From Chiloscyllium plagiosum (Eukaryota): 64,000 bases of DNA. The stretch is taken from NCBI RefSeq assembly GCF_004010195.1, contig NC_057718.1, positions 66,411,351 to 66,475,350 on the forward strand, given 5' to 3'. The position numbers and the translations under genes were made by a program. Positions 1-59,765 of this stretch are shown piece after piece (positions within the stretch are counted from its first letter, which is position 1; each line of letters begins with the position of its first letter). The notes under the pieces are model-generated. The model made no database searches and was not told the origin of the DNA. It saw only the letters and a list, made by a program, of their open reading frames with translations.

Positions 1-747
1 TTCCTTCAGCATATAAATATAGTGTTCCATATGGAAGAGAATACCTTAACACAAAGAAAGAGACTATTGGATGTTTAGTATGGGTGAGGGAAAGTATTTA
101 TTTAAACAGATTAAGTGCAGTTGAATTTCCGTCATTCAGCTTATTGTTTACTATTGCCATTTTTGTAGGAATAGGATCTTGTGTTGCTATTTTGGCTCTT
201 TGTGATGTAGGATGAAGTTTTCTAATCTCCAATTCTTTGAAGAACTTCTAGAAACCTGTAATATTATGTAATGGACAAAATTGCCCATCAACAACTAATA
301 CACATGTACTCTTCATGCCAAAAGAACCAAATACCAAATTTATCTTGTAGATGAGATGTATTGAATTTCCTATAACGAAACATTTACTAACAGGGATATT
401 GATATTAAAGTATGTGTTATAATTACAGGAATATGTCATGATGCAAATTAATCTTGCAGAAGTTAGTAGATAGCCAGTACATCTGGTCAATTCCTTGACT
501 ATTACAACTTATTTGTTGAGCTGTGTATTGAATTTCAAGTCACTTACAACATTTTAGGTGGACTCCTATAGCCTGAACAACATGAACTATGATGAGAAAT
601 CTGGGAGAATCACGTGAGAAATCCAGTGTTGGCATTCTAAATGTTGGGAACAACTGGCTGCATTTTTCACTCATTTTTCTGGGCATCAAGACAAGTTTCT
701 CAATTGGGAATAGCAAGGTTCTAATAAATAGGGATTATTGCTTGTTG

Positions 748-968
748 AGGAGAAAGTGAGGTCTGCAGATGCTGGAGATCAGAGATGGAAATGTGTTGCT
801 GGAAAAGCGCAGCAGGTCAGGCAGCATCTAGGGAACAGGAGAATCGACATTTCGGGCATTAGCCCTTCTTCAGGAACATTCCTGAAGAAGGGCTAATGCC
901 CGAAACGTCGATTCTCCGGTTCCCTAGATGCTGCCTGACCTGCTGCGCTTTTCCAGCAACACATTTCC
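748..968. mobile_element. Palindromic Penelope-like element terminal (pLTR) insertion, family A, with a hammerhead motif
   Basis: 91-bp inverted arms (786-876 and 879-969) with 2 mismatches and a 2-nt spacer. Direct repeat attattgcttgttg at 734-747 and 969-982. The same sequence family caps PLE bodies at 56470 and 63690. Confidence 0.8.
878..913 (+). ncRNA. Minimal type-I hammerhead ribozyme motif (predicted cleavage after C909)
   Basis: CUGAAGA (882-888), extra A, GGGC-UAAU-GCCC stem II, GAAA (902-905), CG, UC. Stem III is palindromic and loopless, as in PLE minimal hammerheads. Stem I is weak. Confidence 0.7.
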
Positions 969-2019
969 ATTATTGCTTGTTGTTGACCTCATTAACTATC
1001 ACCTTATATGCAGCCTCCTATTTAACTCTCACCACAAAGAAAATAAACATTGACAGATTCTCGACAAGAAAGTCAGAGCAGGAATCTGATAACTCCAGCT
1101 TGTCACTTGCTCCTTCACTCTATCTTGGACACCTTGTACCAGCATCTCCACGAATACTCGATGGGCTGTGGTTGCACGTGTTCCCCATCCACGAGCACTG
1201 GCATCTGACATCTGCCAACCTCTTGGAAGTCTCATGGTGTCTCTCTGATCCACTTCCTGGACACACCAACTTCTAAAAGCTGCTGTATGGAGGACACTGG
1301 CAAAGAACATTGCAATGCAGTGACATGTATCCACCTCTCTGTGGACAGGCTGCACACTCGCTGTCTTGATGCTCAATGTCTTTGCATCAGCCTACATGCT
1401 GTCAGCATCATTGCCATGCCTTGCGTCTTAGCATAGTCTCAAAGCCAGGCAGTTTGTCTTGCTGGTCAATAGGACAGATATAATGCACATCACTGTGCTA
1501 CATCAATCTGTCATCCTCCTCGTGTGCCAGCAGCTTGCTTGGTAAACAGATTGCATGTACTGCAAGTGTCAGTCCATGAGTTCCAGCACAGTAAGTCAAG
1601 AACGTTCTCTCCAATTAGTACAGGAATTAGCTGTTGTCAGGTGTCCAGTTGGAGTGTTCTTAGTGTGCGTCTGGAGTTTGGGCTGGGAGACATGGTCAGT
1701 TCATTTGGCTGCATAACAGACCTGGGGAGTAACACTAAAAGAGCTGGGGAGATTCTCTGTCTGGGGCTGTCTGGTTAGGTCACCTAAGGTGGTGGGCCAC
1801 TGCCAATCTGTTGAATCATCCAGCAAAAGCCAGGGGGAATGATGGAACAAAGGAGGCCACTGCTGTGGAAAAGAGATGAGGAACCCAGTACATAAAATCA
1901 CGTTCTATTATTTGGAACTATCTTCAGGAAGTCCCAAGTGAATGATACGTTTCTGCCTCTTCCTGTGGTATCCTGCATCATGAATGCTAATCTTCAGTCA
2001 ATTTACTTCACACGATTTT

Positions 2020-17248: not shown

Positions 17249-18020
17249 AAAAAGTGAAAATTGTTGGAGAATCTCAGCAGGTCTGGCAGCATCTATGGAT
17301 TGAAAGCAAAGTCAACGTTTTGGATCTAGTGACCCTTCTGCAGAACTGATTGTGGCTAACAAGGCGACATATGAAGGAACCTCGATTATCTGAAGGAAAC
17401 GAATACCAGCATTCAGTTAATCAAATTCCAGATAATTGAATGCCGGATAACATAGTTTAGCTGAGCATCGGGATCTTGCGATTTTGCTGGATAATCTAAT
17501 ATTCGGAAAATCAAATTCCAAATAATTGAGGTTCCTCTCTTATGTACCGAAGATTGGGGTGAGGAGGGTATGGGGTGAGGGGAAGGAGTAAAAGGTTGAT
17601 GGAGATGGAGCCCAGAGAGAGAACAGATAAAAGGAACAGATAATGGTGAGCCAAGCAGAGAGAAAAGCTGCTCATGGGGACTATTGGGTGAAAATGAATT
17701 AGCTGTGAATAAAGCAGCCCATGTGATGACAAGGCCTGGGGAGTAGGAGTGGGTAAAGGACATGGAAGAACGTGCTCAAGCCCTAAAATTGTTGAACTCT
17801 GTATCGACTTCTAAGGACTGTAGGATTCCCAAGTAAAAAATGAAATGTTCTTCTGGCTCTCACTGAGCCTCACTGGTACACGGCAGCAGGCCTGAGAAAC
17901 GTGTTGGCCAGGCAATTGGAAGTTCAGGGTCATTTTTGAGAACAGAGTGCGAGGTCTGCATTTAGTCTCCCCAGTGTAGATGAAACCATATTGTGAGCAG
18001 TGAATGCAATAGACTAGGTT
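17249..18020 (-). mobile_element. Penelope-like element 3' portion: GIY-YIG endonuclease remnant plus family B pLTR with a hammerhead motif
   Basis: Minus strand 'CIHCSQYGFIYTGETKCR' (GIY-YIG). Terminal 'agttctgcagaagggtcactagatccaaaacgttgact' is a degenerate hammerhead. Confidence 0.8.
17372..17540. mobile_element. Tigger/pogo-type MITE nested in the Penelope-like element
   Basis: TIRs aggaacctcgattat / ataattgaggttcct with TA flanks. Same TIR family as 48065-48221. Confidence 0.75.
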
Positions 18021-19225: not shown

Positions 19226-21357
19226 ATAGAACATAGAACAGTACAGCACAGAACAGGCCCTTCAGCCCACGATGTTGTGCCGACCATTGATCCTCATGTA
19301 TACACCCTCAAATTTCTGTGACCATGTCCAGCAGTCTCTCAAATGTCCCCAATGACCTTGCTTCCACAACTGCTGCTGGCAACGCATTCCATGCTCTCTC
19401 CACACTCTGTGTAAAGAACCTGCCTCTGACATCCCCTCTATACTTTCCTCCAATCAGCTTAACACTATGGCCCCTTCGTATTAGCCATTTCTGCCCTGGG
19501 AATTAGTCTCTGGCTATCGACTCTATCTATGCCTCTCATTATCTTGTATACCTCAATTAGGTCCCCTCTCCTCCTCCTTTTCTCCAATGAAAAAAGTCCG
19601 AGCTCAGTCAACCTCTCTTCATAAAATAAGCCCTCCAGTCCAGGCAGCATCCTGGTAAACCTCCTCTGAACCCCCTCCAAAGCACCAGCATCTTTCCTAT
19701 AATAGGGCGACCAGAACTGGACGCAATATTCCAAGTGCGATCTAACCAAAGTTTTATAGAGCTGCAACAAGATCTCATGACTCTTAAACTCAATCCCCCT
19801 GTTAATGAAAGCCAAAACACCATATGCTTTCTTAACAACCCTGTCCACTTGGGTGGCCATTTTAAGGGATCTATGTACCTGCACACCAAGATCCCTCTGT
19901 TCCTCCACACTGCCAAGAATCCTATCCTTAACCCTGTACTCAGCTTTCAAATTCGACCTTCCAAAATGCATCACCTCGCACTTATCCAGGTTGAACNNNN
20001 NNNNNNNNNNNNNNNNNNNNNNNNNNNNNNNNNNNNNNNNNNNNNNNNNNNNNNNNNNNNNNNNNNNNNNNNNNNNNNNNNNNNNNNNNNNNNNNNNNNN
20101 NNNNNNNNNNNNNNNNNNNNNNNNNNNNNNNNNNNNNNNNNNNNNNNNNNNNNNNNNNNNNNNNNNNNNNNNNNNNNNNNNNNNNNNNNNNNNNNNNNNN
20201 NNNNNNNNNNNNNNNNNNNNNNNNNNNNNNNNNNNNNNNNNNNNNNAGACGTGAGACTTACTGGTCTGTAATTGCCAGGGATTTCCCTATTTCCTTTTTT
20301 GAAGAGAGGAATTACATTTGCCTCTCTCCAGTCCTCAGGTACGACTCCAGTGGAGAGCGAGGATGCAAAGATCTTCGCAAGTGGCAAAGCAATTGCATTT
20401 CTCATTTCCCAAAGCAGCCGAGGACAAGTCTGGTCTGGGCCTGGCGACTTGTCAATCTTAATGTTTGACAAAATTTTCAGCACATCAGCTTCCTCTATCT
20501 CTATCCATTCCAGCATGCTTTTCAAAGGTTTCATTTACTACAAAGTTCATTTCTTTTGTAAAGACAGAAACTAAAAATTCATTTAGGGCTCCCCCTACAT
20601 CCTTAGACTCCACACACCAGTTCCCTATGCTATCCCTGATCGGCCCTACTCTTTCTTTGACCATTCTCTTATGCCTCTCATAAGTGTAAAATGCCTTTGT
20701 GTTCTCCCTAATCCGTTCTGCCAAGCATTTCTCGTGCCCCCTCCTGGCTCTCCTCAGACCATTTTTGAGCTCCTTCCTTGCCTGCCTGTAATCCTCTAGA
20801 GCTGAGCTTGACCCTAGCTTCCTCCACCTTATGTGAGCTACCTTCTTCCTTTTGACGAGAAGCTCCACCGCTCTCGTCATCCAAGGTTCCTTTATCTTAC
20901 CACTTCTTGCCTGTCTCAGAGGGACGTATTTATTCATCACTTGCAACAACTGTTCCTTAAACAGTCTCCACATGTCTATAGTGCCTTTATCATGGAACAA
21001 TTGCTCCCAGTCCATGCTTCCTAAATCATGTCTAATTGCATCATAGTGTCCTCTTCCCCAAGTAAATATCCTCCCATTTTGCCTAATCCTCCTCCTCCTC
21101 CATAGCTATGTAGAATGTGAGGCAGTTATGGTCACTATCACCAAAATGCTCTCTCACCACAAGATCTGATACCTGCCCCGGCTCGTTTCCAAGCACCAAG
21201 TCTAGAATGGCCTCTCCCCCTCCCCTTGTCGGCCTGTCAATGTACTGAGTTAGGAAATCCTCCTGAGAACACCTTACAAAAACAATATTGATTGGAACCT
21301 CTGCTCGAAAGAGGTTCCAATCAATATTGGGAAAGTTAGTCACCCATGACAACAACA
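19226..21357 (-). mobile_element. Young 5'-truncated CR1 (HER1-like) LINE containing an assembly gap
   Basis: Long open ORF2 segments ('KSPGPDQ', 'EDWREANVIPLFKKG', 'NYRPVSLTS', 'LEYCVQFWSPYYRKD'). (catagaa)-type 3' tail. Confidence 0.95.
19997..20246. other. Assembly gap (250 N)
   Basis: Run of N inside the RT region of a young CR1. Confidence 1.
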
Positions 21358-22633: not shown

Positions 22634-22956
22634 GATTACATTCCCTTCAGTGTGGAAACAGGCCCTTCGGCCCAACAAGTCCACACCGACCCTCCAATGA
22701 GCAACCCACCCAGACCCATTCCCCTACATTCACCCCTGACTAATGCACCTAACTACGGGCAATTTAGCATGGCCAATTCACCTAACCTGCACATCTTTGG
22801 ACTATGGGAGGAAACCGAAGCACCCGGAGGAAACCCATGCAGACACTGGGAGAATGTGCAAACTCCACACACAGTTGCCCGAGGCGGGAATTGAACCCGG
22901 GTCCCTGGCGCTGTGAGGCAGCAGTGCTGACCACTGAGCGAGCCACCATACCGCCC
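22634..22956 (-). mobile_element. HE1 V-SINE
   Basis: tRNA-like head with A/B boxes, V-domain 'gtgtggagtttgcacattctccc' and CR1-like tail 'gggccgaagggcctgtttccacactg'. Confidence 0.93.
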
Positions 22957-24160: not shown

Positions 24161-24938
24161 TGTATAAATACAAGTTTTTTTTTTGGCTGAAATTGGTTTT
24201 GCTAATAAAATAAAAATCATTCAGCACATTTTTCCCTTGATCTCTGGGGAGGAACTTAGTAACTTTGAAGAATGTAAAACAGACTGAGTAATAGCAATAA
24301 CCTTTGTGACCTCCAACACAATAGTCATCCCCAAAGTATGTCACTGGAGCATTCAAAAGCAATTTGAAACTATCCTGTTGCTGGACAACATGTAAGATTA
24401 GTTGGCCAATGGCCTGGTCAAAGATGTGAATTTTGAGGAATTCCTTAAGAAAGAAGTGTGAGGTGAAGAAGTGTGAGAGGGGCATTCTAATGCTTGGGTC
24501 CAAGGGAACTGAATGGGTGGCCACTAATGGTAGAGTAGTTAAACTCACGCTGCTCTGAGGCTACAATTAGGGGAATGCACATGTATCAGATTGGAGGACA
24601 TGCAAGGCAAGGATGAGAATTAAAATTCAAGATGTTGTTTGACTAGGAGGTCAGTGTACAATTTAGTAGCCGTGAAGGTGGTGATATGGCAGGTGGTGGT
24701 AGAGTTCGGAATAATAGCACATATCCAACTCTGTTGTATTCAGTGTATTTTCATAAATTGAATGTACACAAGTACATATGTACGCTTTGGACCTCTTATT
24801 TCGATTTACAGTTGCGTTGTTGAATCTATGCCAATCATTGTACAATGTAATATCTTAATCTTTTCCATATGAAGATGGATATTCTGCTAATGAGTCTTTT
24901 CTGTAGCTTTTCTAACAAATGTTGGGTCAGATTTTTCA

Positions 24939-25088
24939 TCGGAGCAGGAGAATCGATGTTTCGGGAAAAAACCCTCTTGTGTGAAATGTTGATTCTCCTG
25001 ATCCTTGGATCCTGTCAGACCAGCTGTGCTTTTCCAGCACCACACTCTTGACTCTGATCGCCAGAATCTGCAGTCCTCACTTTCTCCT
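24939..25088 (+). mobile_element. PLE pLTR family A insertion with a short inverted 5' segment
   Basis: TSD agatttttca at 24929-24938 and 25089-25098. 'caggagaatcgatgtttc' is inverted relative to 'gaaatgttgattctcctg'. Confidence 0.75.
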
Positions 25089-26269
25089 AGATTTTTCACT
25101 GGCCAGAATCATTATTCCAGTGTACATTGGAATTTGCATATGGGAGCCCTGTGGAATCCCAATCATAGCACAGTCTGGAGGAATTGTTTGGGAAGTTTAA
25201 TTTTCGGCTGGGCATTTCCTCTAATCCTGGAACCCTCTGAAAATCTCTGTAAAAAAAAAAAATGGAGACTTCAGATGGTTCAGATAAAATTAAGTAAAAT
25301 AGTTAGTTATTCAGGAAATGTTAGACTACTAAGGGCATAGTCTAACTCTTGAGTAACTATTAAGCAAACCCCATTGTTGCCTCACTTATAATATCAAGAG
25401 CAGGACTCCACAGCCTAGGTCCCCCGCTATAAATATTGAGCAATAGACAAAATAGATCTAAGATTAAAAGCTGTGTACAGCAGACTGTATTTTAATAGAC
25501 TAATGCTGACCGAGGTTTGTATGTGAGCCTGGATGTTGCTTAGTCTGTTGAGACAGGCATATGCATACGAAGGCATTTCATAATTGACAGCATTTTCTCT
25601 TGAATCTATTTTGTCAGTTGCTCAGAGTTAACTTATGCAAGACACAAAGGTGTCAAGTATATGTAGTTTCCGCTATTTAAAGGTCTTGTTGATACTTTTA
25701 GAAGGTGTTCTAACAGCAGATTTGCGAAGAATACACTGCATTTATAATAAGGTTCATTGGATCTATGCTGAGGTGTTTATTGGGTGAATGGATATAGAAG
25801 TGTAATGCAATATATAAGTGCTGTTGGTGTGTGGAGTGAAATTAACATGGAGCATAGGAGGGAATGCTGGGGAGATTGAAGCATGAATGGGCATGTTGTA
25901 TAGAATTAATGAGGACTATAGGGTCTAATATTGAATGAAGCCACCTTTAGACTCAGCCAATGGTGGGCAAGGGGACCCACCCACCTCCTTCCACAATTGA
26001 AAATCCCACTTTCTCAGATTCCTCTTCTGAGGCAGCCATGCTAATTTGAGTCCAATCTCACATGAAAATCCAGTCCAATGTCTCCACAAAACATACTTTT
26101 TACTTTTTCTATTCCTCGTACTTTAGTCATATACCAAAAAAATGGCTAGCGTCACCATCATTTCACACAGGAGTGGCTATGTTTTGGCTTTCCTTTTGCA
26201 ATTAATTAACATCAATGAGCCTTAGTACTAAAACTAATGCTCAACTGGAGGCATGTAGGTAACATGAAG

Positions 26270-27908: not shown

Positions 27909-28076
27909 CATGAGCAAGAAGGATCTTTGAACATCCACTTTCCAGCACCAGAGGGTACAATCTGGGACAGCTCTTCAGAGTCGACCGTTCGTGTCTGCTT
28001 TCCTGATAACCAAGTAGTGAGCATGGCTATTAAACCAGACCATACGGTGGGAGATGTACTGCTTATGGCATGCAAG
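27909..28076 (+). CDS. TIAM2: Internal exon of a TIAM2-like Rac1 GEF gene: linker plus N-terminal part of the RBD (HEQEGSLNIHFPAPEGTIWDSSSESTVRVCFPDNQVVSMAIKPDHTVGDVLLMACK)
   Basis: Acceptor tatttcag| and donor AAG|gtattt. 168 nt, phase 0-0, open frame. The peptide resembles recalled TIAM2 'TYVHFQDNHGVTVGIKPEHRVEDILTLACK'. Confidence 0.85.
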
Positions 28077-28217
28077 GTATTTATTATGAAGCTGAGAAAA
28101 AATAATTTTATGAAAGGATTAAAAAAAATCTTTTTAAAACTGGCTGGATGGGTGAGTGTATCATGTTGGTTTTATTGAGGGGTCGAGCGAAGGTGGGACA
28201 ATATACCAGGTCTGGCT

Positions 28218-35559: not shown

Positions 35560-35925
35560 TCGGTTATCTCAGTTAGTTTGATGGCTGGTTTGCAAAGCAG
35601 TGTGATGGAGGAGAAAGTGAGGACTGCAGATGCTGGAGATCAGAGCTGAAAATGTATTGCTGGAAAAGCACAGCACGTCAGGCAGCATCCAAGGAACAGG
35701 AGAATCGACATTTCGGGCATAAGCCCTTCTTCAGGAAATTTCTTCAGGAAAGCAATGTGATGCCAGTGTTCAGTTTCCACACTGGCTGAAGTTACTATGA
35801 AGGACTGCCCATTTCAACCTATGTCCTCGCATGGTGACCCTCTGATTAAACCACCACCAATTGTCTCTCTAATGATTGAACAACTTTGTGGTCCATTAGG
35901 ACTATAGTGACTTTATCTTACCTAC
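35560..35925 (+). mobile_element. tRNA-derived SINE (same family as 32215) interrupted by a PLE pLTR
   Basis: Head 'ggttatctcagttagtttgatggctggtttgc' and tail 'ggactatagtgactttatcttacct'. Confidence 0.65.
35608..35748 (-). mobile_element. PLE pLTR family A insertion with a hammerhead motif
   Basis: TSD aaagcagtgtgatg / aaagcaatgtgatg (35594-35607 and 35749-35762). Minus strand 'ctgaagaagggcttatgcccgaaatgtc'. Confidence 0.8.
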
Positions 35926-43264: not shown

Positions 43265-44500
43265 TACCCAGTGCAATCTCCTGCTTTTTCCCCATATGCT
43301 TGTGCACTATTTATACCTGAATAGTCATTCAATGCCTGCTTGAATGCATCAATTGAACTTGGCTGTAGTGCATTCCTTACCCTAACTACTTGATGTGTGA
43401 AAATGTTTTTTGCTTCACATTTGCTTAGGATGCACATCACTTTCAATCTATGCCCTCTTATTCTTGTTCTTGTTATGAGCTACAAAAACTTCTATGTATT
43501 CTAACTATCTATCTCATGATTTTGAAAATCCCTATCAAATTTCCTCTCAGCCTTCCTCTCTCCAAAGAGTACAGTTTTAATTACTTTAATTATACCCTCA
43601 GTTGAAGGTTCTTCTTTCTGGTGCCATTCTTGTAAATCACTTCTGAACTTTCTCCAATACATTCATATCTTGTCTATCATGTGGCAGCCACAGCTAAACA
43701 TCATATTCCAAATGAGGTCTAACACGTTTCTTCCAAAAGTTCAACATCATTCCCCATAGTCTTGTATTCTATTTTAAGGGCAGCATGGTGGCTCAGTGGT
43801 GAGCAGTGCTGCCTCACATGCCAGGACCCGGGTAATTCCCACCTCAATTCCCACCTCGGGTAACTGTCTGTGTGGTGTTTGCACATTCTCCCCATGTCTG
43901 CGTGGATTTCATCTAGGTCCTCCGGTTTCCTCCCACAATCCAAAGATGTGCAGGTCAGGTGACTTGGTCATGCTAAATTGCCTGTAGGTTTGGGTGCATT
44001 AGTCAGGACTAAATATAGGGTAGGGGAATGGGTCTGGATGGGTTATTCTTTGGAGGGTCCATGTGGACTTGCTTGGCCAAAATGGTCTGTTTCCATATTG
44101 TAGGGAATCCAATCTATGCTCCTATTAATAAAGGTGAAGACATTGTATGCTTTATTAACTGCTGTCTCCACATGTCCTGTCACCTTCAGTGATCTGTGCA
44201 TATATACACCCACGTTCCCCAGCCCTTGAACCCCCTTAGAATTGTAACTCCCCTTTTTATGTTGTAGTTCAATGTTCTTCCTATCAAAGTACATAATTTC
44301 CTATTTCTCAGTATTGAACCTCATCTGTCACCTATCCGCCCATTCTGCTATCATCTCAATATCCTTCTAGAGTGCCACACTGTACTGCTCACAGTTTATA
44401 ATTTGTAAGCTTTGCATAAGCTGCAAAATTTGAACTTGTCCCCTGCACACCAAGATCCAGATCATTAAGTCATGAAAGGGAAGAGTCCCAAACATCAATC
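43265..44500 (-). mobile_element. Decayed CR1 LINE with a nested HE1
   Basis: ORF remnants 'IFTHQVVRVRNAL' and 'GVYMHRSLKVTGHVETAVNKAY'. Confidence 0.8.
43778..44116 (+). mobile_element. HE1 V-SINE
   Basis: Head gggcagcatggtggctcagtgg, V-domain and tail. Confidence 0.9.
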
Positions 44501-44519: not shown

Positions 44520-45158
44520 TCCATAAATAGGAATAAGAGTAGGCCAATTGAGCCAGCTCCGCCATTTAATCGGATCATGGCTGATCCGACAATCTTCACA
44601 CCCAATTTCATGACTCCTCTACTGATCAAAAATCTGTCTATTTCATCCTTCAATATACCCAAGGATTCTGTCCCCATAGCTCCCTGGGGTTCCAAAGACA
44701 CTGAACTCTCAGGGAAGAGATTTCTCCTCATCTCCGTCTTAAATTGGTGACCCTTTGTTAGATTAGATTACTTAGTGTGGAAACACGCCCTTCGGCCCAA
44801 CAAGTCCACACCGACCCTCTGAAGCGCAACCCACCCATACCCCTACATTTACCCCTTCACCTAACACTACGGGCAATTTAGCATGGCCAATTCACCTGAC
44901 CTGCACATCTTTGGACTGTGGGAGGAAACCCACGCAGACACTGGGAGAATGTGCAAACTCCACACAGTCAGTCGCCTGAGGTGGGAATTGAACCTGGGTC
45001 TCTGGCACTGTGAGGCCGCAGTGCTAACCACTGTGCCACCGTGTCTTTCGGTCCGAGACACACACATGAGGGGCAACATCCTCTCTGCAGTTACCATGTC
45101 AAGCCCCTTAAAAGTCCTGTAGGTTTCAATGTGATCACCTCTCATTCTTCTAAACTCC
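44520..45158 (-). mobile_element. CR1 3' end with a nested HE1 (44757-45042, minus strand)
   Basis: 'MRGDHIETYRTFKGLD' is interrupted by HE1 sequence. CR1 3' UTR at 44520-44755. Confidence 0.85.
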
Positions 45159-46635: not shown

Positions 46636-46785
46636 AAACAAGCATGGAAATTGTTAGAGAAATTTAGCGAGTCTGGCAGCATCTGTGGAAAGAGAAAAAT
46701 CAAGTTTGAACTTAAAAATAACTTTGTTCCTCTCTTCACAGATACTGCCAGACCTTCTGAGTTTCTTCAGCATTTCCTTTTGTTC
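46636..46785. mobile_element. Decayed palindromic PLE pLTR (family B)
   Basis: Inverted arms 'gtctggcagcatctgtggaaagag' and 'ctcttcacagatactgccagac'. Confidence 0.7.
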
Positions 46786-48064
46786 CACAACACCCTCTGT
46801 CACTTCCTCCTTTCCTGAAAACGTTTTTATCTTTTATTTAGACATATGCCCTCTCTGTGTGGTGTTAATTTCTCAACTTGTGTCTTTGGTTGATCTGTTC
46901 TCTTTGTGAGTTCTAGGAATCTAACCTAACTGCATGGTTTTGGCTTCCCATAGTGTCCCTTGTCTCAACTTTTTATTTAAATTTTTGGAATTTCATCACG
47001 TCAGTTTGGTGAGGTGATATGTAAAATAAGCTGGTCCTGATGACGTGATAAAGATCCTTTTGTTGACTCCAGTGTCATTGTGGTGTAGCTTTGCTGAGAA
47101 ACCACCAGTGTACTAAGCACAGATTACCATCATTTATTAAATTGTACACAGACAGTTTGAGACTTTACTCTGAAAAGCCACAAGTGCTTATTTCTTTTAT
47201 ACATCTAAAGTAATGTATACATACCCTTGCTCAACTTTAAACTTGTCAACTACCAATTGCATGTAACAGACATCTGTTTACTTAGCTCCTGTGGTACATG
47301 TATCAAGTATTGTTCTTATCCTAGGTCTCCCATTTCGCAATGATTATGCAGTCCAGGCTGCCTCCTTATTTTTAAATCACCAACTCCCTAGCAAGGCCCT
47401 TTGTTGTAGTCTGTGTTTATCCTGTCTAATGTACATCTGTGAATCACTTTATGTTCTGTCTCTTCCTGATCAATTACCAAAAAAGGTCATAAGACTACCT
47501 CTGTTATGTTGTGACGATGACTCCTAATAAGAATGTTATTTAGTAATGATTGTTTGTCCAGTTTCAAATTGTCTACTATGCATTATTTTTGAAGGATGAA
47601 TGTTCTCAAACTGATTAGTATCCATATCCCTGATAGAAAATGCTGTAACAATTTGCATGCACATTTTACACATTTGGAAATCAGCCTAGTATGTTGCTAT
47701 TCTACTTTCCAGGGAAAAACAATCTCTACAGCTAGGTCATAGTTGATTTGCTGTTTCTTTTCTTTCATCCTTTCCTGTACTTCATGATTCCTTTCTCCAG
47801 TGATTTCTACTGTCTGCTGCTTCTGAGCTGATTTATTTCATTCTCGCGTTTCAATTCTGCAGGTGAGTGTTTGGAGAGCATGAATGTTTGTGAGATCCCA
47901 TTGCTTTGCTGCCTGCATGAGTGAGAATGCCTAGTTAACTTCCCTTCATAAAAAGATCAGTGTTATGATGGAGATTTGAAACATTATGTTGTTTTTTTTT
48001 GCACTGAGCAAATTAGCTGAGAAAACAAATCAAATTGCATTAATTTTGAATTAATTACTGATTA

Positions 48065-48221
48065 CAGAGGAACCTCAATTATCCGACATTCGATTAACCG
48101 AATTTCGGATTATCTGAATAAGGTCACAAGGTCCAGATGCTTGGCTAACTGTTATCCAACGTTTGATTAACCGAATGAAGTACTCCTTGCCTGTCCCCTT
48201 CGGATAATCAAGGTTCCTCTG
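48065..48221. mobile_element. Tigger/pogo-type MITE (157 bp)
   Basis: TIRs cagaggaacctcaattatccga / tcggataatcaaggttcctctg. TA duplication at 48063-64 and 48222-23. Internal attaaccgaa repeats. Confidence 0.9.
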
Positions 48222-49699
48222 TAATTGTAATATGCATGTTTACTTCATTTTAAAAAAAAAGTAAATACCATCGCCATTCACTGGTGATATCTCTGTTGCC
48301 TGTCCGTAGTTATGATTTGCTCTAACTTTGGAGGAAGAAAACTGTTTCTTCAATTGCTTTGCTGATATTGCCAAGCAGAAACAAGTCAACTTTTCTCTTC
48401 AGCTCTGCCTTCGTAAGGTGCAGAGGGAACCAGATTAAATTGCTTTTAATTGTGCATGATTATTGGTGATGAATTACGGTGATGCTGTAATTGGAATGAA
48501 AGTGCTTTAATTGGCTAAAATTGTAAGTTTGTAGTCAATTTATCATTTAATTCCTGAACATTGCTGGAGAAAAAAATATGCTGTTGAAACTTTTGTGATC
48601 AGTGCAAAATAAATAGACACACACTGTCCAATGATGAAACCACACCCAAAATGCAATGACGCATCTTGAATTTTTAGAGTATGCTGAAGACATTTACCTA
48701 TTACAAACAGCCAAAAGAGTATGCTATTTTATGCAATCTACAGTTGTTTGGATGTATGGTTTACATTTTTGAACAATTCCAAGTGTGTAAAGAATTACAG
48801 CAATAACTAATTTAAGGTTATCGCATCAGGTTTACAAAGTAACTCATTTTATGCGTGCTAGAACTTATATATATTTATACAACAGATGTATTCATCACAA
48901 ACAAAAGGAACTTGTCCAGACATTGTGCCTCCTTTTTAAATTAAAGGAAATGTCTGGGGGCGGTCGTTTCACAGTATGGCACCGCATTGACCAATAAGAG
49001 TCAACTTGTCAATGTATCATCACTTGTTTCTCTTTCAGTGTATGTTGTTGATTCCTTTCAAGTTTGGTATTCTTGCATCTGTCCTGATGAGTGCAAGATG
49101 AAATTCTTCTACAGTGTATCCCTTTTTTTCCAACAGCTCTTGAGTTCTATACTACCGTGCAACTGTTGCATTCTTCTTAAATATTGATGAATGAATATGT
49201 TTTATAATTTGAGAAGATAGCCAAGTGTTTTGACTGCATTATTATGTTCATTATCATTTCCCACTGTGTTGGAAAATTTCATAACTGGTAATTCCTAAGA
49301 ACAGATTCTCTTTCTCCTTGTGGAGATTTTAAAAAAGAAAGGCTTGGATTTGTTTTGTTCTTCATGACCTCAGCATCCTAAAGTGCTTGATACCGAAGAA
49401 CATACTTCTTGGAAATGTTGTTACCTTTATAATGTAGAAAATATGGCAGTTAAATAATGCTCCCCAAAAGCAGTGACGTAATAATAACCAGGTATGCTGG
49501 AGGTGTGTTAAAAGATGTTTGTTGGTTTCCAATGTTGGATGGTACTGAATTATTCTGATCTGTTCATTCTGCTAACAAGTGCAAATTGATTACCTGCTGT
49601 ATTAATGTGGAATTGTGTGGTGTGAGAAAAAAAGAAAATAATTTCACGTCAGACATTACAAATCTTGGAATAATTAACTAATATTTGTGTCCAATGCAG

Positions 49700-49804
49700 A
49701 TAAGACAACTGGATCCAATTCATCACTGTGTTCGTCTTAGAAGAACGGAGTACAATAATGTGGAATATTATGTTCCTAACAGTTTGGACTATATACAGGA
49801 ACAG
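49700..49804 (+). CDS. TIAM2: Internal exon of the TIAM2-like gene: C-terminal RBD (IRQLDPIHHCVRLRRTEYNNVEYYVPNSLDYIQEQ)
   Basis: Acceptor ccaatgcag| and donor CAG|gtaata. 105 nt, phase 0-0, in frame with the previous exon. Resembles recalled TIAM2 'MRQLEPSHYGLQLRKLVDDNVEYCIPAPYEYMQQQ'. Not present in the ORF track. Confidence 0.85.
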
Positions 49805-50134
49805 GTAATATTTGATACAATATTTTATATAAATAAAGGTCACTTTCCTGATTTGAAATGATTATTCATATTCCATTTCATACTTCCATAGATATCTGCA
49901 TTCCTTAGGCCTTTCTATGCATAAACTTCAGCTGCAAGTATGGAGAATATTGTAGGCAGAATTAATATAAACTGATTCAATCAATGCAATGCTGACAAGC
50001 ACTTTATTAAAGTAGTAATGAGTATTAATCCAAAAAGATGTTTTAAAATGCCTCATTATCATGTCTTACCATAATTGGTATTTTTCAAAGCTTTTCCTAA
50101 CCAATTAATCTCTGTAACTTAGGCTAATGTTGTT

Positions 50135-50495
50135 GGGGACACGGTGGCATTGTGGTTATTTCACTAGACTAGAAATCGAAGGGTGTTAGTATTCTGGAAT
50201 TGTAAACTAGCCTCTTTAATGATGACCATGACACTATCATTGTCGATTGTGTGGTGCTGGAAAAACACAGTAAGTCAGGCAGCATCCGAACAGTAGGAGA
50301 ATAGAGGTTTCAGGCATAAGCCCTTCATCAAGAATGACACAATCTTTGTTTGTTATGAATATCCAGGTTTCACTAATGCATTTTAGTGAAGAAAGTCTGC
50401 TGTTCTGACCTTAACTCTTTAATTTAGTTCAAGCTTAATTAGGGATGGACAACAAATATTGGCCTTGCCTTGACATCCACATCCCATGAAAAATG
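50135..50495 (+). mobile_element. tRNA-derived shark SINE with a nested PLE pLTR fragment (about 50250-50335, minus strand)
   Basis: Head 'cacggtggcattgtggttatttcactagactag' and tail 'agggatggacaacaaatattggcc..cacatcccatgaa'. The insert is flanked by atgacac repeats. Confidence 0.7.
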
Positions 50496-51208
50496 CCAGT
50501 TAAACAGAAGCTCCTACAGTTCGATGAAATAAATAACTAACTAACCTGTAGTAAATAGCGTTGCTCAGTTCTCTTGTGCAAGTAAGTGGTGCCTTGGTTT
50601 CATATGTCACTCTAAAAGGTGATATCCAGTAAAATCTGGAAACTTATATTGTGATCAAATCTGGGAGCATAGTGTGAAGCCAAAATCTTCTGAATAAACC
50701 CAGAAGGAACAGTGTTTTTCAGATGTGCTGAGGATAGCAGTAACATTTTAATTGTTCATCAGAAAATTGTTAACTCAGGATACACTAAACATAACTAGAA
50801 ATTTCTGCATAGGGTTATAATTTATACTCGCCAGGTTATTAAGGGAGTTGTCAATTATTAACCTCATTAACTATAATGCCATCAATTATTTTCTACATGA
50901 TTGTTATATATTGCTCCTCTTAATTTCCTTGACTTCGTTGCATGCCTTTCTTACAAGGCAGCCAGGCTACCTGGATTCTCTACTCTGCCTTCTAGTATTT
51001 TCCTCAAAACGTCCATTATTTTTCGGTCCAGTTGTAGCCAGTATATCTGGAGCAACACCATGTTCTCCTCTTGCCTGATTACTTTTCGGAAGGATCCATC
51101 CCTCAATTCCTGCTCATCTTCAACATGCTGCCCCTTGATGACATCCATTGTCACAGCATCAATTGAAAGCTCTCAGCATGCACATCATGCCTACTTTCTT
51201 GAGAGGAG

Positions 51209-51466
51209 TCATGATTTGGAGATACCGGTGTTGGACTGGGGCATACAAAGTTAAAATTCACACAACACCAGGTTATAGTCCAACAGGTTTAATTGAAAGC
51301 ACGCTAGCTTTTGGTGCGTCACTCCTTCATTAGGTGGTAATGGAGGGCTCATTCCTAGGATTGAGCCCTCCACTACCATCTGATGAAGGAGCGACACTGC
51401 GAAAGCTAGTGTGCTTCCAATTAAATCTGTTGGACTATAACCTGGTGTTGTGATTTTTAACTTTGT
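51209..51466. mobile_element. Palindromic PLE pLTR insertion, family C, with a hammerhead motif
   Basis: Arms of about 110 bp (51245-51356 and 51357-51466) centred on cct|agg. The + arm reads cat-CUGAUGA-A-ggagcgacacugc-GAAA-GC-UA-gug. Confidence 0.8.
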
Positions 51467-52239
51467 TGAGAAGAACTAAGTTGTATGTAATTTCTGACAA
51501 ATTTGTTAAAGTGCTGAACCTTAACCCCTGTATCCTATTATCACCACTCTTGTCTTACCATATTATGACTGAACTTCGTATAATTATCTTTGGCATATCT
51601 GAACCCTGTTGCTGATGTCTTTCTCTTCACGCTCCATAAGTTTCCAAGTCATCCAAATGTAATAATCTTGCACGACCATCACCAATCTACGTGCCCATCT
51701 TTGTTTCAAGGCATCAAATTTAAGATCGGTTCCTGATTCAAAATTGTTTCATGGTTCATTCCTAACTTGAATCTATGACTTTCTATGGTTCCATGTACCC
51801 TTTATCTCTAGCTACCCTTCCATTTCAGTTCAGTTCTCTTTTTTTGTGTCAGAACCTTGACCATTTGGACCTTATCTTTTGGAACACCCTCCCTCAACCC
51901 TGCCATTTCTCCACTTGTCTTCCCATCTTTCAAAAACATCTCAAAATCCAAAAATTTCAGCTTTTGATCTCTTAATAAAATTTTCCAGACTTAATAACCA
52001 TTCCTTTCATTTCTGCAATATCATGGATAATATTCTACCTTAAAGGGTCTAAATCATATAACATAAATAATGTAAGTGCTAGTCTTGTCTCACTTCCAGT
52101 ACCTTCATTGGAATGAAGGTAGCATGTATTTAACTCTTAACATTAGCAATTTCAATGTTGTACAAAATTATTTTAACAATTAGTTAAGCATGCTAAAATT
52201 AAATTTGGAAAACTGATCACATAGATATTTTGTTTTCTT

Positions 52240-52795
52240 CAGTCATGATATGTGGGCATCACTAGCTGGTCCCGAGATGCCCTTTAGAAAGCGTTGGTGA
52301 GCTGTCTTCTTGAACAGCTGCAGTCCATGCATGTCCCATAATACTCTTAGGGAGGGATTTCCAGAATATTGATACAATGACACTGAAAGAATGGCAATAT
52401 ATTTCCAAGTCAGGATGTTGAGAGGCTTGGAGGGGAACTTGCAGGTGATGGCATTGCGTGTACATGCTGCCCTTGTCTTTTTAGGTGGAAGTAGTCATGG
52501 ATTTGGAAGGTATGTCTGAGGATCTTTGGTGAATTTCTGCAGTGCATCTTGTAGTTGGTACACACTGCTGTTACTGAGCAGTGGTGAGGGAGTGAATGTT
52601 TGTGGTTGTCGTGCCAATTAAGTTGGCTGTTTTCATCTGGATGATGTCATGCGTGTTGAAACTGCACTCACCCAGACAAGTGGGGAATATTCCATCACAC
52701 TCCTGACTTGTGTCTTGAAGGTGGTGGACAGGCTTTGGGTAGTCAGTGGTGAGTTACTGCAGTAGCTGCACAGCCAACGAACTGCCTGCCTGCTG
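52240..52795 (-). mobile_element. CR1/L2-group LINE 3' fragment
   Basis: Typical 3' region 'ccagaatattgatacaatgacactgaaagaatggcaatatatttccaagtcagg'. Related copy at 61830-62155. Confidence 0.7.
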
Positions 52796-52844
52796 AAGCT
52801 CCAGTTGCTGCTGCAGTGACATTTTTGTAACGCTTCCCAATCCT

Positions 52845-53460
52845 GAGTCTAGTGTTTATATAATGCCCCCCCTCCCCCAAAGTTTTTACCACAGCTCTTC
52901 CAGCCCAGTGTTTATATGACTCCCAATCATTTTGTAACAATCACCCCAGCCCAGTATTTTTTTTATAACTCCAGCGCCACACCCCAGTCCAGTGTTTACA
53001 TAACAAGCCGCCTGACATATCCAGTATTTTTATCAACCCCACCCCCAGTAATTTTATAACACCCACAGCTCAGTAATATCAAAACACACTCCCAGCCCAA
53101 TGTTTATATAACTGTCTCCCAGCCCAGCATTTGTACCTTTAATCCCCCCCAATAAACTTTTATCATATCACCCAGCCTAGTGATCATTTTTATTAACAAC
53201 GTCTGAGCCCAATGTTTTATAAAACACCCCACCCAGTTGCACGGTTTGTATAAATGCCCCAGCCCAATTATCTTAACAGCTTCCCAGCCCAGTGCTTATA
53301 CAGGTATAACCTTCTACCAGCCCAGTAATTTTATAAACTAATCACCTACCAGTTCAGTGATTTTATAAAAAAATCCAACCCAGTTTATTGTTTACTTTTT
53401 CTATAAACTCCCCCACCCCAGTGATTGCTTTTACAGATCCGCACCCCAAGCCAAGTGATC
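52845..53460. repeat. Degenerate minisatellite with units of roughly 30-40 bp and core ccccagcccagtRtttatataa
   Basis: More than 15 visible cccag(c/t)ccag/cccagt cores alternating with ttta(t/c)a(t/a)aa tracts. Confidence 0.85.
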
Positions 53461-53739
53461 TCTCAACCACAAACTGAGAATGACCAGCACAGTAACAGGA
53501 AGCACACTGACCTTGTCCTCCCCTCAGACCTTGCACTAACCCATTGGGAGGTGCTGCTGAGCGCAGAATGGTTTGTCTGAACTCCACTGCAGGCAATCTA
53601 AGGCTAAACTGCAGTGCCTGGTGTCCAGTTGTCTTGGAACCCCTTCGCCACTGGACTAATATCTTGCGCTGCTCAGCCTGTGTGGTAGCTGATGTGCAAT
53701 AGTTTCCCCACGTTAGAAGAATTCCCACACAGGCTCCTT

Positions 53740-56385
53740 CCACATCCTTTGAATGAAGTTTAGCAGGATTGTCCAAAGATCCCAGATCACTGCACCACAA
53801 TTTTTGCTGGGGATCTTAGGCACTCTGACATTGACATCACCGCCCTGAGTGAAGCCTGATGAGCAGGGGAAGAGCAGCTCTGAGAAAAAGGTAGTGGCTG
53901 CACCATTTTCTGGAAAGATAAGGCCAAAAATGTGCTGTATCCATGGAGTCAGCTTCGCCATCAAAAACCAACTTGTGGACCAACTCAAAGACGCCCTCCT
54001 TTGGAATAAGTGAATGCCTTATGACACTCCAATTCACCCTTGTTCAGAATCAGTATGTCTCCATACTCTGTGCGTATGCACCAATGCTCAATGTAACAGC
54101 TGAGGATGAGAAATTCTATTCCAGCCTTGACCAATCTCACGCATGGGTCCCTACAGTGGACAAACTAATTGGCCTTGGTGATTTCATTGCCAGAGTCAGC
54201 AAAAGAGCAGACCTTTGGGTGTTGTAATCAGGATAGAGGTAGTAGGGAAGCAACAGCACCCTTCCTTGACCAAATACTGCAAATATAACCACCTCATCAC
54301 CAATACATTGTTTTGCCAAAGGGACAAATACAAGACAACGAGGAAACACCGAGACTGGTTTGATGAGAATGATCAGAAGATCCAAGAACTGTTAAACCAG
54401 AAGCACGTGGCATTTGAGTATAAAACAACAACTGCATTTGGAAAAGAAAAGGCAGGCCTACAGTGACTGAAGGCTGAGCTTCAACAACAAATCCATGGCA
54501 AAAAGACCTGGTGGTAGGTGGAGAAAGCACTGGAGGCCCAATGAATGGCTGACAACTATGACATGCAGGGTTTCTTCTATGCTGTCAAGACCACATATTG
54601 ACAAAATATCCAAGTCCCCACCCTATTGCCGGCCAAGGGTGGAGTGACTCTTATCAAAGATAAAGGAGCCATCAAACGATGCTGGAGGGAGCATTTCAGA
54701 GACCTCCTCAACCAGGGCTCAGTTATCAATCCAAGCATCCTTGAATACATCCCACAGCATACTACATGCCATGTGTTCATGCAACACACCAGCCTTGCAT
54801 GAAGTAGACAAAGCCATCGCCAGCTTAACTAGGCTGCTGGAGCAGACAGTATCCTCACTGAGGCATTGAAGTGTGGAGGCAAACAGCTTCTGCTGCAGCT
54901 GCATCCCTTGACTGTCTTATCTGTAAGGAGGACAGCATCCCGGGAGAGCTCCAAGATGCTGCAGTCATGAGTATTTTCAAAAAAGGGAACAAGTCTGACT
55001 GTGATAACTACAGGAGAATCTTCCTGCAGTCGACTATTGGAAAAGCCATTGCCAAGGTCCTCCTGAATGGTCTCCTCCCAGAGTAGCAGTGTAGCTTACA
55101 GTCACTGGCACAATTGACATGATTTTCACCAAGCAACAGCTGCAAGAGAAAAACAGAGAAAAGAACCTACCCCTGTACGTGGCTGCCTTCAACCTTACAA
55201 AGGCCTTTAGCACCGTCAATCAGCAAGCATTATGGAACGTCCTTCTCCACTTTGGTTGTACCATGAAGTTTGGTGCCATCTTTCACCTGCCTGACGACAA
55301 CATGGAAGTCATAATGACAAATGTCTCCACCACTGACCCCTTCCCTGAATGGTGTCAAGCAGAGCTGTGTCATCGCCCCACCACTGTTCTCAATGTACTT
55401 CACTGCAATGCTTTACCTCACCACCCACAAGCTCCCCGCTGGAGTGGAGCTAACTTACAGAACCTGCAGGAAGTTATTCAACTTCCGCCATCAAGCCAAA
55501 ACCAAAGTCACCCCAACCAATGTCATTGAGCTGCAGTATGCAGATGATTAATGCATACGTGCAATCTCAGGATGTACTCCAGACCTTACTCTCATATGCC
55601 TTCGTAAAGGTAAAAATTATGTATCTCTCCCCAAACATCCACAAGATGAAGATCCTCCTCCAACCTGACCTGGCACTGTGGAACAAACCCTCGGTCATTC
55701 AGGTCCACAGGGAGGCCAGGGACAGCATTGACTGCTTCCAGTCCTTTGGGAGTTTCCTGTTGGCCAAAGCAGCTATTGGAGAGATCCAGCACTGCCTCCC
55801 TATGTGCTAGCACAGCCTTCAGTCACCTGAGGAAATGGGTGTTCGAGGCAAACGACATCAGATCCCACACTGAGATCCCGGTTTACAGAGCTGTGGTGGT
55901 TCCTGCCCTCTGATTATGGAATGGACTGTATACAGCAGACACCTCAAGGCACTAGATCGGTACCACCAACGTTGCCTGTGCAAGATCCTACCAATCTATC
56001 TATTGGGAAGAAAGATGCAACAACACCATAGGTTGGGCACATCATCTGCATGACTGATACGAGTCTCCCCAAGCAGGTACTCTACTCCCAGCTTCAAAAC
56101 AGCAGGTGAGCCCCAGATGGACAGAGGAAATGCTTCAGTGAGACTTCCAAGGCCTCGCTGGTGATGTGCAGCATTCCAACAGACACTGGGAATCACAGCC
56201 CAAGACCCTCCAAATTGGAGGAGGAGCATCCAGGAAGGCAACGGGCACTCCAAGACATGCTTTTGGGAAAATGTAGAAGCCGCACCCACCCCTTCCTGCA
56301 TCCACTACCTGTCCCAATTGTAACAGAGCCTGCGGTGGCTGCACTGGTCTGTATAGCCATCTGCAGACTCCTTGAGAGTGGAATA
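53740..56385 (+). mobile_element. Decayed RTE-clade LINE (EN-RT)
   Basis: EN 'HGVSFAIK', 'SILCAYAPML', 'LIGLGDFIARV'. RT 'YVAAFNLTKAFSTV', 'NGVKQSCVIAPPLF', 'ELQYADD'. C-terminal 'CPNCNRAC'. Confidence 0.9.
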
Positions 56386-56466: not shown

Positions 56467-57465
56467 AAAAAGTGTGGTGCTAGAAAAGCACAGCAGGTCA
56501 GACAGCATCCGACGATCAGGAGAGGAGACATTTCGGGCATAAGCTCTTCTTCAGGAATGCGGAGGAGGAAGGGGGCTGAGAGATACACAGGAGGGTGTGG
56601 GTAGGGCTGTGGGGAAGGTAGGTTATTTTGGTGATCAGTGGATGCAGGTAAGAGGTGATTATGGTACGTCGGAGGGGAGGGTGGAGTGGATAGGCGGGAA
56701 GGAAGATGGACAGATCAAGAGGACGATGCCGAGTTGGAGGGTTGGATCTCGATGGTGCAAGGGGAGATTTGGAAACTAGTGAAGTCAATGTTGATATCGT
56801 GTGGTTGTAGGTTCCAAGGTTGACAATGAGGCATTCTTCCTCCAGTTGGCAGGTGGCTTTGATTTGGCTGTGGAAGAGGTCCAAGATTTGCATGTCCTTG
56901 GGGGAGTGTTAGGGGAAATTGAAGTGATTGGCCACAGGGCGGCACGGTGGCACAGTGGTTAGCACTGCTGCCTCACAGCGCCAGAGACCCGGGTTCAATT
57001 CCCGCCTCAGGCGACTGACTGTGTGGAGTTTGCACGTTCTCCCCGTGTCTGCGTGGGTTTCCTCCGGGTGCTCCGGTTTCCTCCCACAGTCCAAAGATGT
57101 GCAGGTGAGGTGAATTGGCCATGCTAAATTGTCCGTAGTGTTAGTTAGGGGGTAAATGTAGGGGTATGGGTGGGTTGCGCTTCGGCGGGTCGGTGTGGAC
57201 TTGTTGGGCCGAAGGGCCTGTTTCCACACTGTAAAGTAATCTAACCTAATCTAAGGGCAGTGGAGTTGTTTGGTGTGTGTGGACCAGAGATGTTTCCTGA
57301 ACCACTGTGTGAGTTGGCATCCCAGATATAGAAGAGACCACATCGGGCTTATATGCGAAACTCTGACTCTCCTGCTCCTTGGATGTTGCCCAGCCTGCTA
57401 TGTTTTTCCAGCACCACACTTTTTGACTCTGACTCTCCAGCTTCTGCAGTCTTCACTTTTTCCTA
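56467..57465 (-). mobile_element. Penelope-like element fragment with inverted pLTRs (about 56470-56557 minus, about 57355-57465 plus), interrupted by HE1
   Basis: GIY-YIG C-terminal remnant 'PVANHFN..MQILDL..QLEEECLIVNLGT'. Family A pLTR at both ends in opposite orientation. Confidence 0.8.
56937..57254 (+). mobile_element. Young full-length HE1 V-SINE
   Basis: A box tggcacagtgg (56948-56958), B box ggttcaattcc (56992-57002), CpG-rich V-domain and (taatc)n tail. Confidence 0.95.
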
Positions 57466-57714: not shown

Positions 57715-58165
57715 CCCAAAGTGAGAGAAGAATAGTTAGGACAGACAAAGGAGTGGATAACAATCTGGCTAGGAGAGTGAATAGCTGTTAATGGAGACTG
57801 TTAGTGGCTAACAATCAGTTGTGTGTAATGACATTCTGTGATCCTGTGTGTGCGGTTGGGGGCTGGGACATAAGAGTTCAAGCCCAAAATTTATTGAACT
57901 CGATATTTAAGTCCTGAAGGTTGCAGGGTCTCTTTGGGCTCTGTTCCTACGTATCCTTTAATCTTTAACCCCTTCCTCCCAACCCTCTCTTTTGCACGTA
58001 AACTGACATTTTCCTACATACAATCAATTCTGAGGCAGGGTCACCAGATCTGAAACATTAACTCTGATTTTTCTTCAGATGCTGCCAGACCTGCTGAGCT
58101 TTTCCAACAACTTCTGTGTTTGTTTTGATTTACAGCATCTGCAGTTCTTTTGGTTTTTGTTTGGT
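57715..58165. mobile_element. PLE family B terminal fragment with an internal inversion
   Basis: A minus-strand PLE 3' region is followed by a plus-strand pLTR 'ttctgaggcagggtcaccagatctgaaacattaactc..gcatctgcag'. Confidence 0.65.
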
Positions 58166-58397: not shown

Positions 58398-59765
58398 AGA
58401 GTCATAGAGATGTACAGCATGGAAACAGACCCTTCAGTCCAACTTGTCCATACCAACCAGATATTTTTTAGATTAGATTACTTAGTGTGGAAACCTTCGG
58501 CCCAACAAGTCCACACTGACCCGCCGAAGCGCACCCACCCTGACCCATTCCCCTACATTTACCCCTGCACCTAACACTACGGGCAATTTAGCATGGCCAA
58601 TTCACCTAACCTGCACATTTTTTTTGGACTGTGGGAAGAAACCGGAGCACCCGAAGGAAACCCACGCAGACGCTGGGAGAATGTGCAAACTCCACACAGA
58701 CAGTCACCTGAGGTGGGAATTGAACCTGGGTCTCTGGCGTTGTGAGGCTGTGAGGCAGCAGTGCTAACCATTGTGCCACCTTGCCGCCCACCGTGGCCCA
58801 GTGGCAGCACCTGGCCCATATCCCTCAAAATCCTTCTTATTCATATACCCATCCAGATGCCTTTTAACTGTTGCAATTGTACCAGCCTCCACCATTTCAT
58901 CTGCCAGACCATTGCACACATGTACCACCCTCTACATGAAAAGGTTACCCCTTAGGTCTCTTTTATATCTTTCCCCCCTCACCCTAAATCTATGTATTCT
59001 AGTGGCCTCCCCCACCCCAGGGAAAAGACCTTGTCTATTTACCCTATCCATGCTCCTCATAATTTTATAAACTTCTATGAGGTCACCCCTCAGCCTCCGA
59101 TGCTCCAGGGAAAACAGCCCCAGCCTATTCAACCTCTCCCGATAGCTCAAATCCTCTAACCCTGGCAATATCCTTGTAAATCTTCTCTGGACGCTTTCAG
59201 GTTTCATAACATCTTTCCGATAGGAAGGAAACCAGAATTACATGCAATGTTCCAAAAGTGGCCTAACCAATGTCCTGTACAGCTGCAACATGATCTCCCA
59301 ACTCCTAAATTCAGTACTCTGAGCAATTAGGGAAAGTATACCAAACGCCGTCTTCACTATCCTATCTACCTGCAACTCCAAGGTCTCTTTGTTTAGCAAC
59401 ATTCCCTAGGACCTTACCATTAAGTGTATAAGTCCTGCTAAGATTTGCTTTCCCAAAATGCAGACCTCACATTTATCTGAATTAAACTCCATCTGCCTGT
59501 CCTCAGTCCATTGGCCCATCTGATCAAGATCCCATTGTAATCCGAGGTAACCTTCTTCGCTGTCCACTACACCTTCCAATTTTGGTGTTATCTGCAAACT
59601 TACGAACTATACCTCTTATGCTCACATCCAAATCCAAAACATAAATGACAAAAAGTAGTGGACCCAGCACCAATCCTTGTGGCATTCCATGGGTCACAGG
59701 CCTCCAGTCTGAAAAACAACCCTCCACCACCACCCTCTGTCTTCTACCTTTTGAGCCAGTTCTGT
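58398..59765 (-). mobile_element. CR1 LINE 3' portion with a nested HE1 (58468-58789, minus strand)
   Basis: 'GMPQGLVLGPLLFVIYV', 'KFADNTK' and 'VQRRFTRILPGL'. Confidence 0.92.

Follow-up and report, generated by a model that had tools for sequence, protein, structure and literature searches.

A hammerhead-bearing inverted insertion in Chiloscyllium plagiosum as a probable stump of a Penelope-like element

What kind of element leaves a short, mostly palindromic insertion with a hammerhead ribozyme motif, and how did its two arms come to face each other? The locus considered here lies in a 64,000-nt stretch of Chiloscyllium plagiosum DNA (contig NC_057718.1, positions 66,411,351 to 66,475,350; hereafter the window), and all positions below are window positions. 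The original prediction described a self-contained palindrome with an intact minimal hammerhead core, both arms of which were copied from one RNA of a Penelope-like element (PLE). The reading preferred here, with a probability of roughly 0.8, is that of a young, dead-on-arrival insertion of an endonuclease-bearing (EN+) PLE, cut down to its pseudo-LTR end module.

The insertion is delimited by an exact 14-bp target-site duplication, ATTATTGCTTGTTG, with a left copy at 734-747 and a right copy at 969-982 (both + strand). This pair is the sole exact 14-mer direct repeat at a spacing of 219-251 in the window (1 match in an exhaustive count), and random placement returned such a duplication in 5 of 20,000 draws, about the rate expected from draws falling on the insert itself. 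Between the duplications lie 221 bp (748-968), in which an ORF is now absent. The inverted arms lie at 786-876 and 879-969, and a comparison over 91 positions shows two mismatches between them (837/918 and 849/906); G918 is a private change of arm 2, where approximately 94-98% of the depth in the three DNA runs reads T, and A849 is a CpG change that is present in four other window copies too. The predicted repeat, insert, and arms with their two differences all keep their coordinates on rechecking; the 91st arm position, A969, is already base 1 of the right duplication, and arm and target overlap by 2 nt (785-786/969-970).

The 38 bp at 748-785 (− strand) have no partner in the other arm. They are the remainder of a family unit of about 129 nt, which reads from 876 to 748 on the − strand; the tail is shared with the copies at 35609, 25088, 57464, and 63693. 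Position 748 is the distal 3' end of the unit, and the largest piles of loose ends fall at 748-749 in all four sequencing runs. A 221-bp insert was described correctly, but the duplications do not enclose a self-contained palindrome, because one end of the insert is this unpaired PLE tail. The apparent spacer between the arms, CA (877-878), is family sequence as well, since the copies at 56470, 50250, and 39138 carry CATTCCTGA; the right arm is thus 92 nt long and the head-to-head junction is blunt. Arm 1 (786-876, − strand) is a pseudo-LTR end module whose hammerhead core, at 873-846, has UG instead of CG in helix III. Arm 2 (877-968, + strand) is an inverted, tail-less module that opens with CATTCCTGA and extends as far as the proximal 3' end of the unit. 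At 882-909 (+ strand) it contains a minimal type-I hammerhead motif, the activity of which is putative.

The age of the insertion can be judged from four sequencing runs (three DNA, one RNA) that were aligned to 450-1300 at 85% likeness. In related species B, a 1,320-nt contig (run X9, record 18) matches 633-747 and 1004-1300; 28 letters separate the two matches, vs 256 here. An empty allele predicts 27 letters, made up of 21 and a 6-nt insertion that the other B run has after 998. The empty site, and with it the single copy of the duplication in B, is called from the geometry of this one contig, not from junction letters. A B contig in run X12 fits 969-1250, and the four letters at its end depart from the insert sequence. 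Both insert junctions occur with 0 differences in a second sample of the source species (X3). The flanks differ between the source species and B at 25 of approximately 611 positions, and the arms differ from each other at the lower rate given above. On this contig geometry the insertion took place after the lineage had separated from that of related species B; the empty site that was to be sought in related sharks has a fitting candidate, and the proposed single insertion event agrees with both the duplication and that site.

The insert belongs to a family. When it is compared with the rest of the window by BLAST, the unit of about 129 nt is recovered, whole or partial, at 35609, 24941-25088, 39138, 50250, 56470, 57345, and 63693-63819 (76-93% alike), with remoter relatives at 17261 and 58077 and another, at 62336, recognized by eye. 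Two copies are solo, that at 35608 having a 14-bp duplication with 1 mismatch and that at 50250 a 16-bp duplication with 2 mismatches. The inverted, head-to-head layout recurs at 24941-25088, 56470-57464, and 63693-63819. The second of these (− strand) is a longer insertion of the same family and serves as the reference for layout; it was delineated by tblastn with the PLE proteins P0014/P0015. It contains a tail-less module (56559-56470, −) followed upstream by 3' UTR, a GIY-YIG C-terminus (56938-56760 and 57334-57254, −; tblastn E 1e-10, 2e-7, and 0.002), a 317-bp repeat (56937-57253) that was inserted later into the PLE fragment, and an inverted module with tail (57345-57464, +). As the GIY-YIG C-terminus at 56938-56760 lies directly upstream of the module on the same strand, 56470-57464 is a 5'-truncated PLE with the tail-less module at its 3' end and the inverted, tailed module at its 5' end; this is the layout of the insert under study, but with approximately 0.45 kb of body between the arms. 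The candidate duplication around it has decayed, and 43 of 1,987 random flanks score equally well. The module thus forms the 3' terminus of a PLE that codes for GIY-YIG, and the PLE origin put forward in the original prediction is borne out.

At the protein level, P0014 (RT, CxxC linker, GIY-YIG) continues beyond its endonuclease and ends in LMKGLRPKRQ, which is the translation of the hammerhead motif; the window copy at 63757 translates as LMKGLCPKSR. The frame at 63815-64000 has 13 relatives by phmmer (of the eight looked up, four are labelled whale shark and one little skate), and one of them leads to longer proteins, labelled Stegostoma and Chiloscyllium, with RT, CxxC linker, and GIY-YIG. 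These homologues match GIY-YIG and RVT_1 mostly under the Pfam cut-off (1 of 13 above it), and the frame falls into an Atlas GIY-YIG cluster at 0.94, with PF01541 on 20% of the cluster members. RT itself is found only in the neighbouring PLE fragment at 63689-63432, which ends in the diverged module at 62336. The PLE fragments of the window are short and decayed and hence give Pfam too little to work on: none of five matched at a useful E, with one chance row at E 0.14. A word-based homologue search with 63815-64000 gave three candidates, none of them significant, and a structure search with P0016 matched no solved structure. A CX2-5CxxC linker is present in the homologues P0009, P0015, and P0016 and lies outside the family's window fragment; by the linker of these homologues, the element is tentatively placed in the Neptune clade.

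Several other copies have features of their own. The family insertion at 63693-63819 sits between the RT (63689-63432, −) and endonuclease (63820-63998, +) fragments of an older PLE and consists of non-overlapping inverted halves, the tail half on the − and the hammerhead half on the + strand, an arrangement like twin priming; about 8 nt are missing and an 8-nt filler is present. An inverted family insertion at 24929-25098 is flanked by a duplication of 10 bp; its filler measures 18 nt and its second arm 25 nt, and both of its arms are without the CUGANGA half. At 35727-35751 the 5' end of a solo copy shows a tandem repeat of the final 13 nt, which would suit slippage of a telomerase-like RT on reaching the end of its template. 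Diverged PLE end modules at 17261-17345, 58036-58150, and 62330-62400, with stem II of GGGUC/GAUCY or GGU/ACC, point to at least two further families.

The + arm motif reads CUGAAGA-A-GGGC(UAAU)GCCC-GAAA-CG-UC at 882-909, letter for letter as predicted. It is composed of C3-A9 (882-888), an extra A (889), stem II (890-893/898-901), GAAA (902-905), a palindromic CG (906-907), and UC (908-909), with predicted cleavage after C909 and a helix I of merely 2 bp plus U.U plus 1 bp. The core, the extra base after A9, the G10.1-C11.1 pair, and the palindromic 15.2-16.2 are those of the minimal hammerheads (min-HHRs) of metazoan PLEs, for which PMC4209133 gives CUGANGA, GAAA-NN-UC, the extra nucleotide 9/10.1, and the absence of loop 3; the predicted minimal type-I anatomy is in line with that account. 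Helix II has 4 bp here vs 7-8 bp in the schistosome min-HHR described there, and helix I has 2-3 bp here. The − arm has GAAA-UG-UC in place of GAAA-CG-UC (UG at 15.2-16.2), so that the core is intact in the + arm and helix III is not intact in the − arm; the helix III duplex is predicted at −1.7 kcal/mol for ACGU and +2.6 for the AUGU of the − arm. A descriptor scan of the window finds three intact-looking cores, at +882, −873, and −35734. The TTAT loop reported for the copies at 35608 and about 56520 was seen again at both (the latter at 56470-56559).

Variants of the motif sit at N7, in loop II, and at CpG among the 40 variants listed (45 more lie outside that list). Pair 4 of stem II is CG in three and UA in three of six window copies, a score reached by 27-31 of 500 shuffles, which at most hints at covariation. 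The Rfam search proposed earlier as a check gave no hammerhead match at gathering score across the window, and none among the 11 matches at E<=10 within 700-1020. The best Rfam matches were miRNA hairpin models, far below threshold; they reflect the palindrome.

In its present place the hammerhead motif would be shut inside a hairpin and structurally silenced. The whole insert is predicted to fold as one hairpin (−187.6 kcal/mol, z −24.5), in which 10 of 10 tested core positions are paired on either strand (P unpaired 0.00-0.01). A read-through transcript, if made, would be a 90-bp duplex hiding the ribozyme core, which makes the insert a passenger rather than a working ribozyme; to call it a ribozyme-bearing hairpin in the functional sense is misleading. 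In the experiments reported by Cervera and De la Pena, monomers gave no cleavage and dimers low cleavage (PMC4209133); here the motifs are on opposite strands, so that a tandem dimer cannot form in cis. The segment 870-925, proposed as a cleavage test RNA, is itself predicted to misfold: it contains 7 nt of the opposite arm, 870-875 pairs with 880-885, and C3-U4-G5 is buried (P unpaired 0.00-0.01). This test and the Rfam check would each come out negative on trivial grounds. In a single poly(A) single-cell RNA run (2% read), a library ill-suited to show cleavage, the flanks have a depth of 0-0.21 without a start or end pile, and 2,807 of 12.96 million records match the module. The run speaks neither for nor against cleavage or expression at this locus; a search of sequencing runs listed no RNA run as carrying the locus. 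Elsewhere in the genome, contigs with the joint 917->877 contain a 43-nt head-to-tail hammerhead repeat that could form a cis dimer, and contigs with the joint 782->747 contain a doubled tail.

For the origin of the two arms we lean towards a two-primer insertion. The PLE protein would nick both target strands 14 nt apart, and each nicked 3' end would prime reverse transcription inside the RNA. Priming at the distal site would give arm 1 with its 38-bp tail; priming approximately 38 nt upstream, where 2 nt match the target, would give arm 2. The two cDNAs would each extend through the uncleaved hammerhead to a common 5' point, CAUUC (877-881), which is probably the RNA start, and would then be joined head to head.

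The ends of the family copies bear on these steps. Taking the hammerhead strand as sense, the 3' ends of 11 window arms fall at the tail end in five, 39-45 nt inside in four, and elsewhere in two, and their 5' ends fall at 877-881 in six and at 890-951 in four and run on into a longer body in one; these counts include arms 76-84% alike, in which local alignments may stop early, and the ends of old copies are uncertain by a few bases. None of the 11 arms begins at the cleavage site (G910), which argues for an uncleaved template RNA. At 24941-25088 and 63693-63819, the second arm ends 64-84 nt inside, away from the proximal site, which speaks against this reading. Among the joints listed, 12 of 15 (with 372 more beyond these) lead in both species from the − arm into 877-889, which suggests that head-to-head units are common, and the reference + arm starts at 877, which biases joints toward that position. 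The common 5' point may be a transcription start. In the loose-end consensus, the last family letters before 877 are CCT, giving TCATTCC, which we take to fit the initiator consensus. The signs of a Pol III promoter are no more than a weak B-box likeness, seen by eye, and a TTTT within the unit, and no tRNA was identified by ARAGORN. For Penelope, an internal promoter within the pseudo-LTR is described in PMC2377424.

The arms stem from one event, but their descent from one RNA is unproven, and two RNAs of one young subfamily explain them equally. The original prediction had drawn a single RNA from the shared TAAT loop, which is a subfamily trait and not private to the insert. In X3, the share of the summed contig depth for which no other letter is listed is approximately 14% at 895 and 21% at 860. 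Contigs matching the module, which are not a measure of copy number, amount to 46,755-53,748 per DNA run in both species; at least 99% alike are 6,653 of 53,748 in X3, vs 1,824 and 1,966 in the B runs.

The layout has published counterparts. The rotifer element Pen2a_Av, as described by Arkhipova et al. (2013; PMC3846280), has an inverted pseudo-LTR that is 37 bp shorter (38 bp here), an optional 31-bp tail, and duplications of 8-10 bp, one of 9 bp among them (14 bp here). Together with the units in Fig. 2 of Craig et al. (2021; PMC8557442), where an inverted repeat with a 30-40-bp tail at one end and a duplication is given as the typical PLE layout, it shares with the insert the head-to-head inverted pseudo-LTR, the tail at one end, and the unit-wide duplication. 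Unlike Pen2a_Av, the insert is without an ORF and a second direct pseudo-LTR, its arms being the last 92-129 nt. Four features looked for as marks of an EN+ PLE insertion were found: a module terminal to RT/GIY-YIG, a head-to-head copy, a 30-40-bp tail, and a duplication with an empty site.

A biochemical parallel is offered by PAc (Poseidon, Anolis carolinensis), whose protein, modelled as a dimer, nicks and extends both strands; in vitro, two internal RNA start sites bound the tail and the RNA is unprocessed, and the hammerhead cleaves only with protein and is dispensable for insertion, according to Frangieh et al. (2024; PMC11167929). Here, as in PAc, two 3' ends bound the tail, an uncleaved hammerhead was copied, and an AT-rich target gave a duplication that begins with ATT, whereas ATT is absent at two other duplications in the window. 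PAc is a Poseidon element, whereas the homologues here carry a Neptune-type CxxC linker and the mechanism is read from the letters of the locus.

From the same PLE origin, the second arm could also have been made by self-priming, in which one cDNA came to the 5' end of the RNA, turned back, copied itself over 92 nt, and then joined the target; a single RNA would then suffice, as the original prediction supposed. Arkhipova et al. (2013) read head-to-head PLE junctions in this way (PMC3846280), and fold-back would yield the same sequence with arms as alike as the 98% seen; the copy at 35608, whose last 13 nt are repeated in a way that suggests slippage where the template runs out, is in keeping with it. 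Fold-back does not predict, however, that arm 2 ends where three unrelated tail-less copies end (the distance from the tail end is 39 nt in arm 2 and 41-45 nt in those copies), and arm 2 has the family CA that arm 1 lacks, so that arm 1 was not its sole template. On balance we regard self-priming as improbable.

The module of about 130 nt might instead be a non-autonomous retroelement of its own, SINE- or retrozyme-like, that starts at CAUUC and is moved in trans by PLE proteins; we hold this to be distinctly unlikely. It would suit the six of 11 arms starting at 877-881, the abundance of matching DNA contigs and RNA records, the 14-16-bp duplications of the solo copies at 35608 and 50250, and the short tandem hammerheads suggested by the 917->877 joints. 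Internal initiation in the 5' pseudo-LTR of an ordinary PLE transcript, however, gives identical stumps, and many contigs do not stop at 877 but carry on upstream, where they have a 3'-UTR-like consensus in common. Non-LTR retrozymes, as characterized in PMC7229834 and bioRxiv 10.64898/2026.07.22.740005, are likewise short, non-coding, PLE-related, and equipped with a type-I hammerhead, and that 2026 preprint lists them in one chondrichthyan; they are head-to-tail tandems with mostly canonical hammerheads, whereas a head-to-head pair with a minimal motif is found here, and the tandem array that they require is absent for this unit from the window (6 tandem rows). A DNA element, either MITE or fold-back transposon, is likewise short, non-coding, mostly palindromic, and flanked by a duplication, but there is hardly any chance of it here: the 38-bp unpaired end leaves the inverted arms non-terminal, other copies are single-armed or have different arm lengths, and it is an RT/GIY-YIG element that the module terminates. 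This identity was rejected, and the earlier remark that a MITE finder would misclassify the insert carries little force, with arms that are not terminal and below-threshold matches that were miRNA hairpins.

The insert is an ordinary PLE stump of a described kind, not a new ribozyme or element class. Paired min-HHR motifs on opposite strands, separated by 100-700 bp, are reported in PMC4209133, along with a majority of solo motifs that derive from truncated PLEs; in that paper, the main-text parts and two supplementary files searched do not name sharks. A literature search on PLEs and hammerheads in sharks, which did not cover Repbase and Dfam, found no paper on this family; the family may well be catalogued already in repeat databases. 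The value of the insert is mostly as a clean specimen: with a duplication, a tail, and two arms, it is nearly as small as a complete PLE insertion can be, and its orthologous site is empty. The 3' ends of its two arms agree with the in vitro initiation sites of the anole PLE, and the insert lends support to the idea that the RNA serving as template keeps its hammerhead uncut. Annotators should note that stumps of this type escape Rfam hammerhead models and resemble miRNA hairpins. More speculatively, and with little expectation on our part, the module could be non-autonomous and self-transcribed from the initiator-like CAUUC, the palindromes could record a dimeric PLE enzyme priming both sites at once, and read-through dsRNA of 90 bp could silence the family; if true, a high-copy shark family would make the two-primer mechanism and an in vivo role of the minimal hammerhead testable by end counts.

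Other features of the window include a SINE-like repeat of about 315 bp (56937-57253, 63137-63450, 44758-45043, 58468-58789, 22636-22956, and 43778-44116; 76-94% alike), two copies of which interrupt PLE fragments. An assembly gap (N run) at approximately 20000-20250 lies within a LINE-like RT fragment, and further LINE-like fragments occur elsewhere in the window. At approximately 27980-28080 (+ strand) there is a probable host exon encoding a Ras-binding domain (Pfam RBD, E 3.7e-5, under the cut-off).
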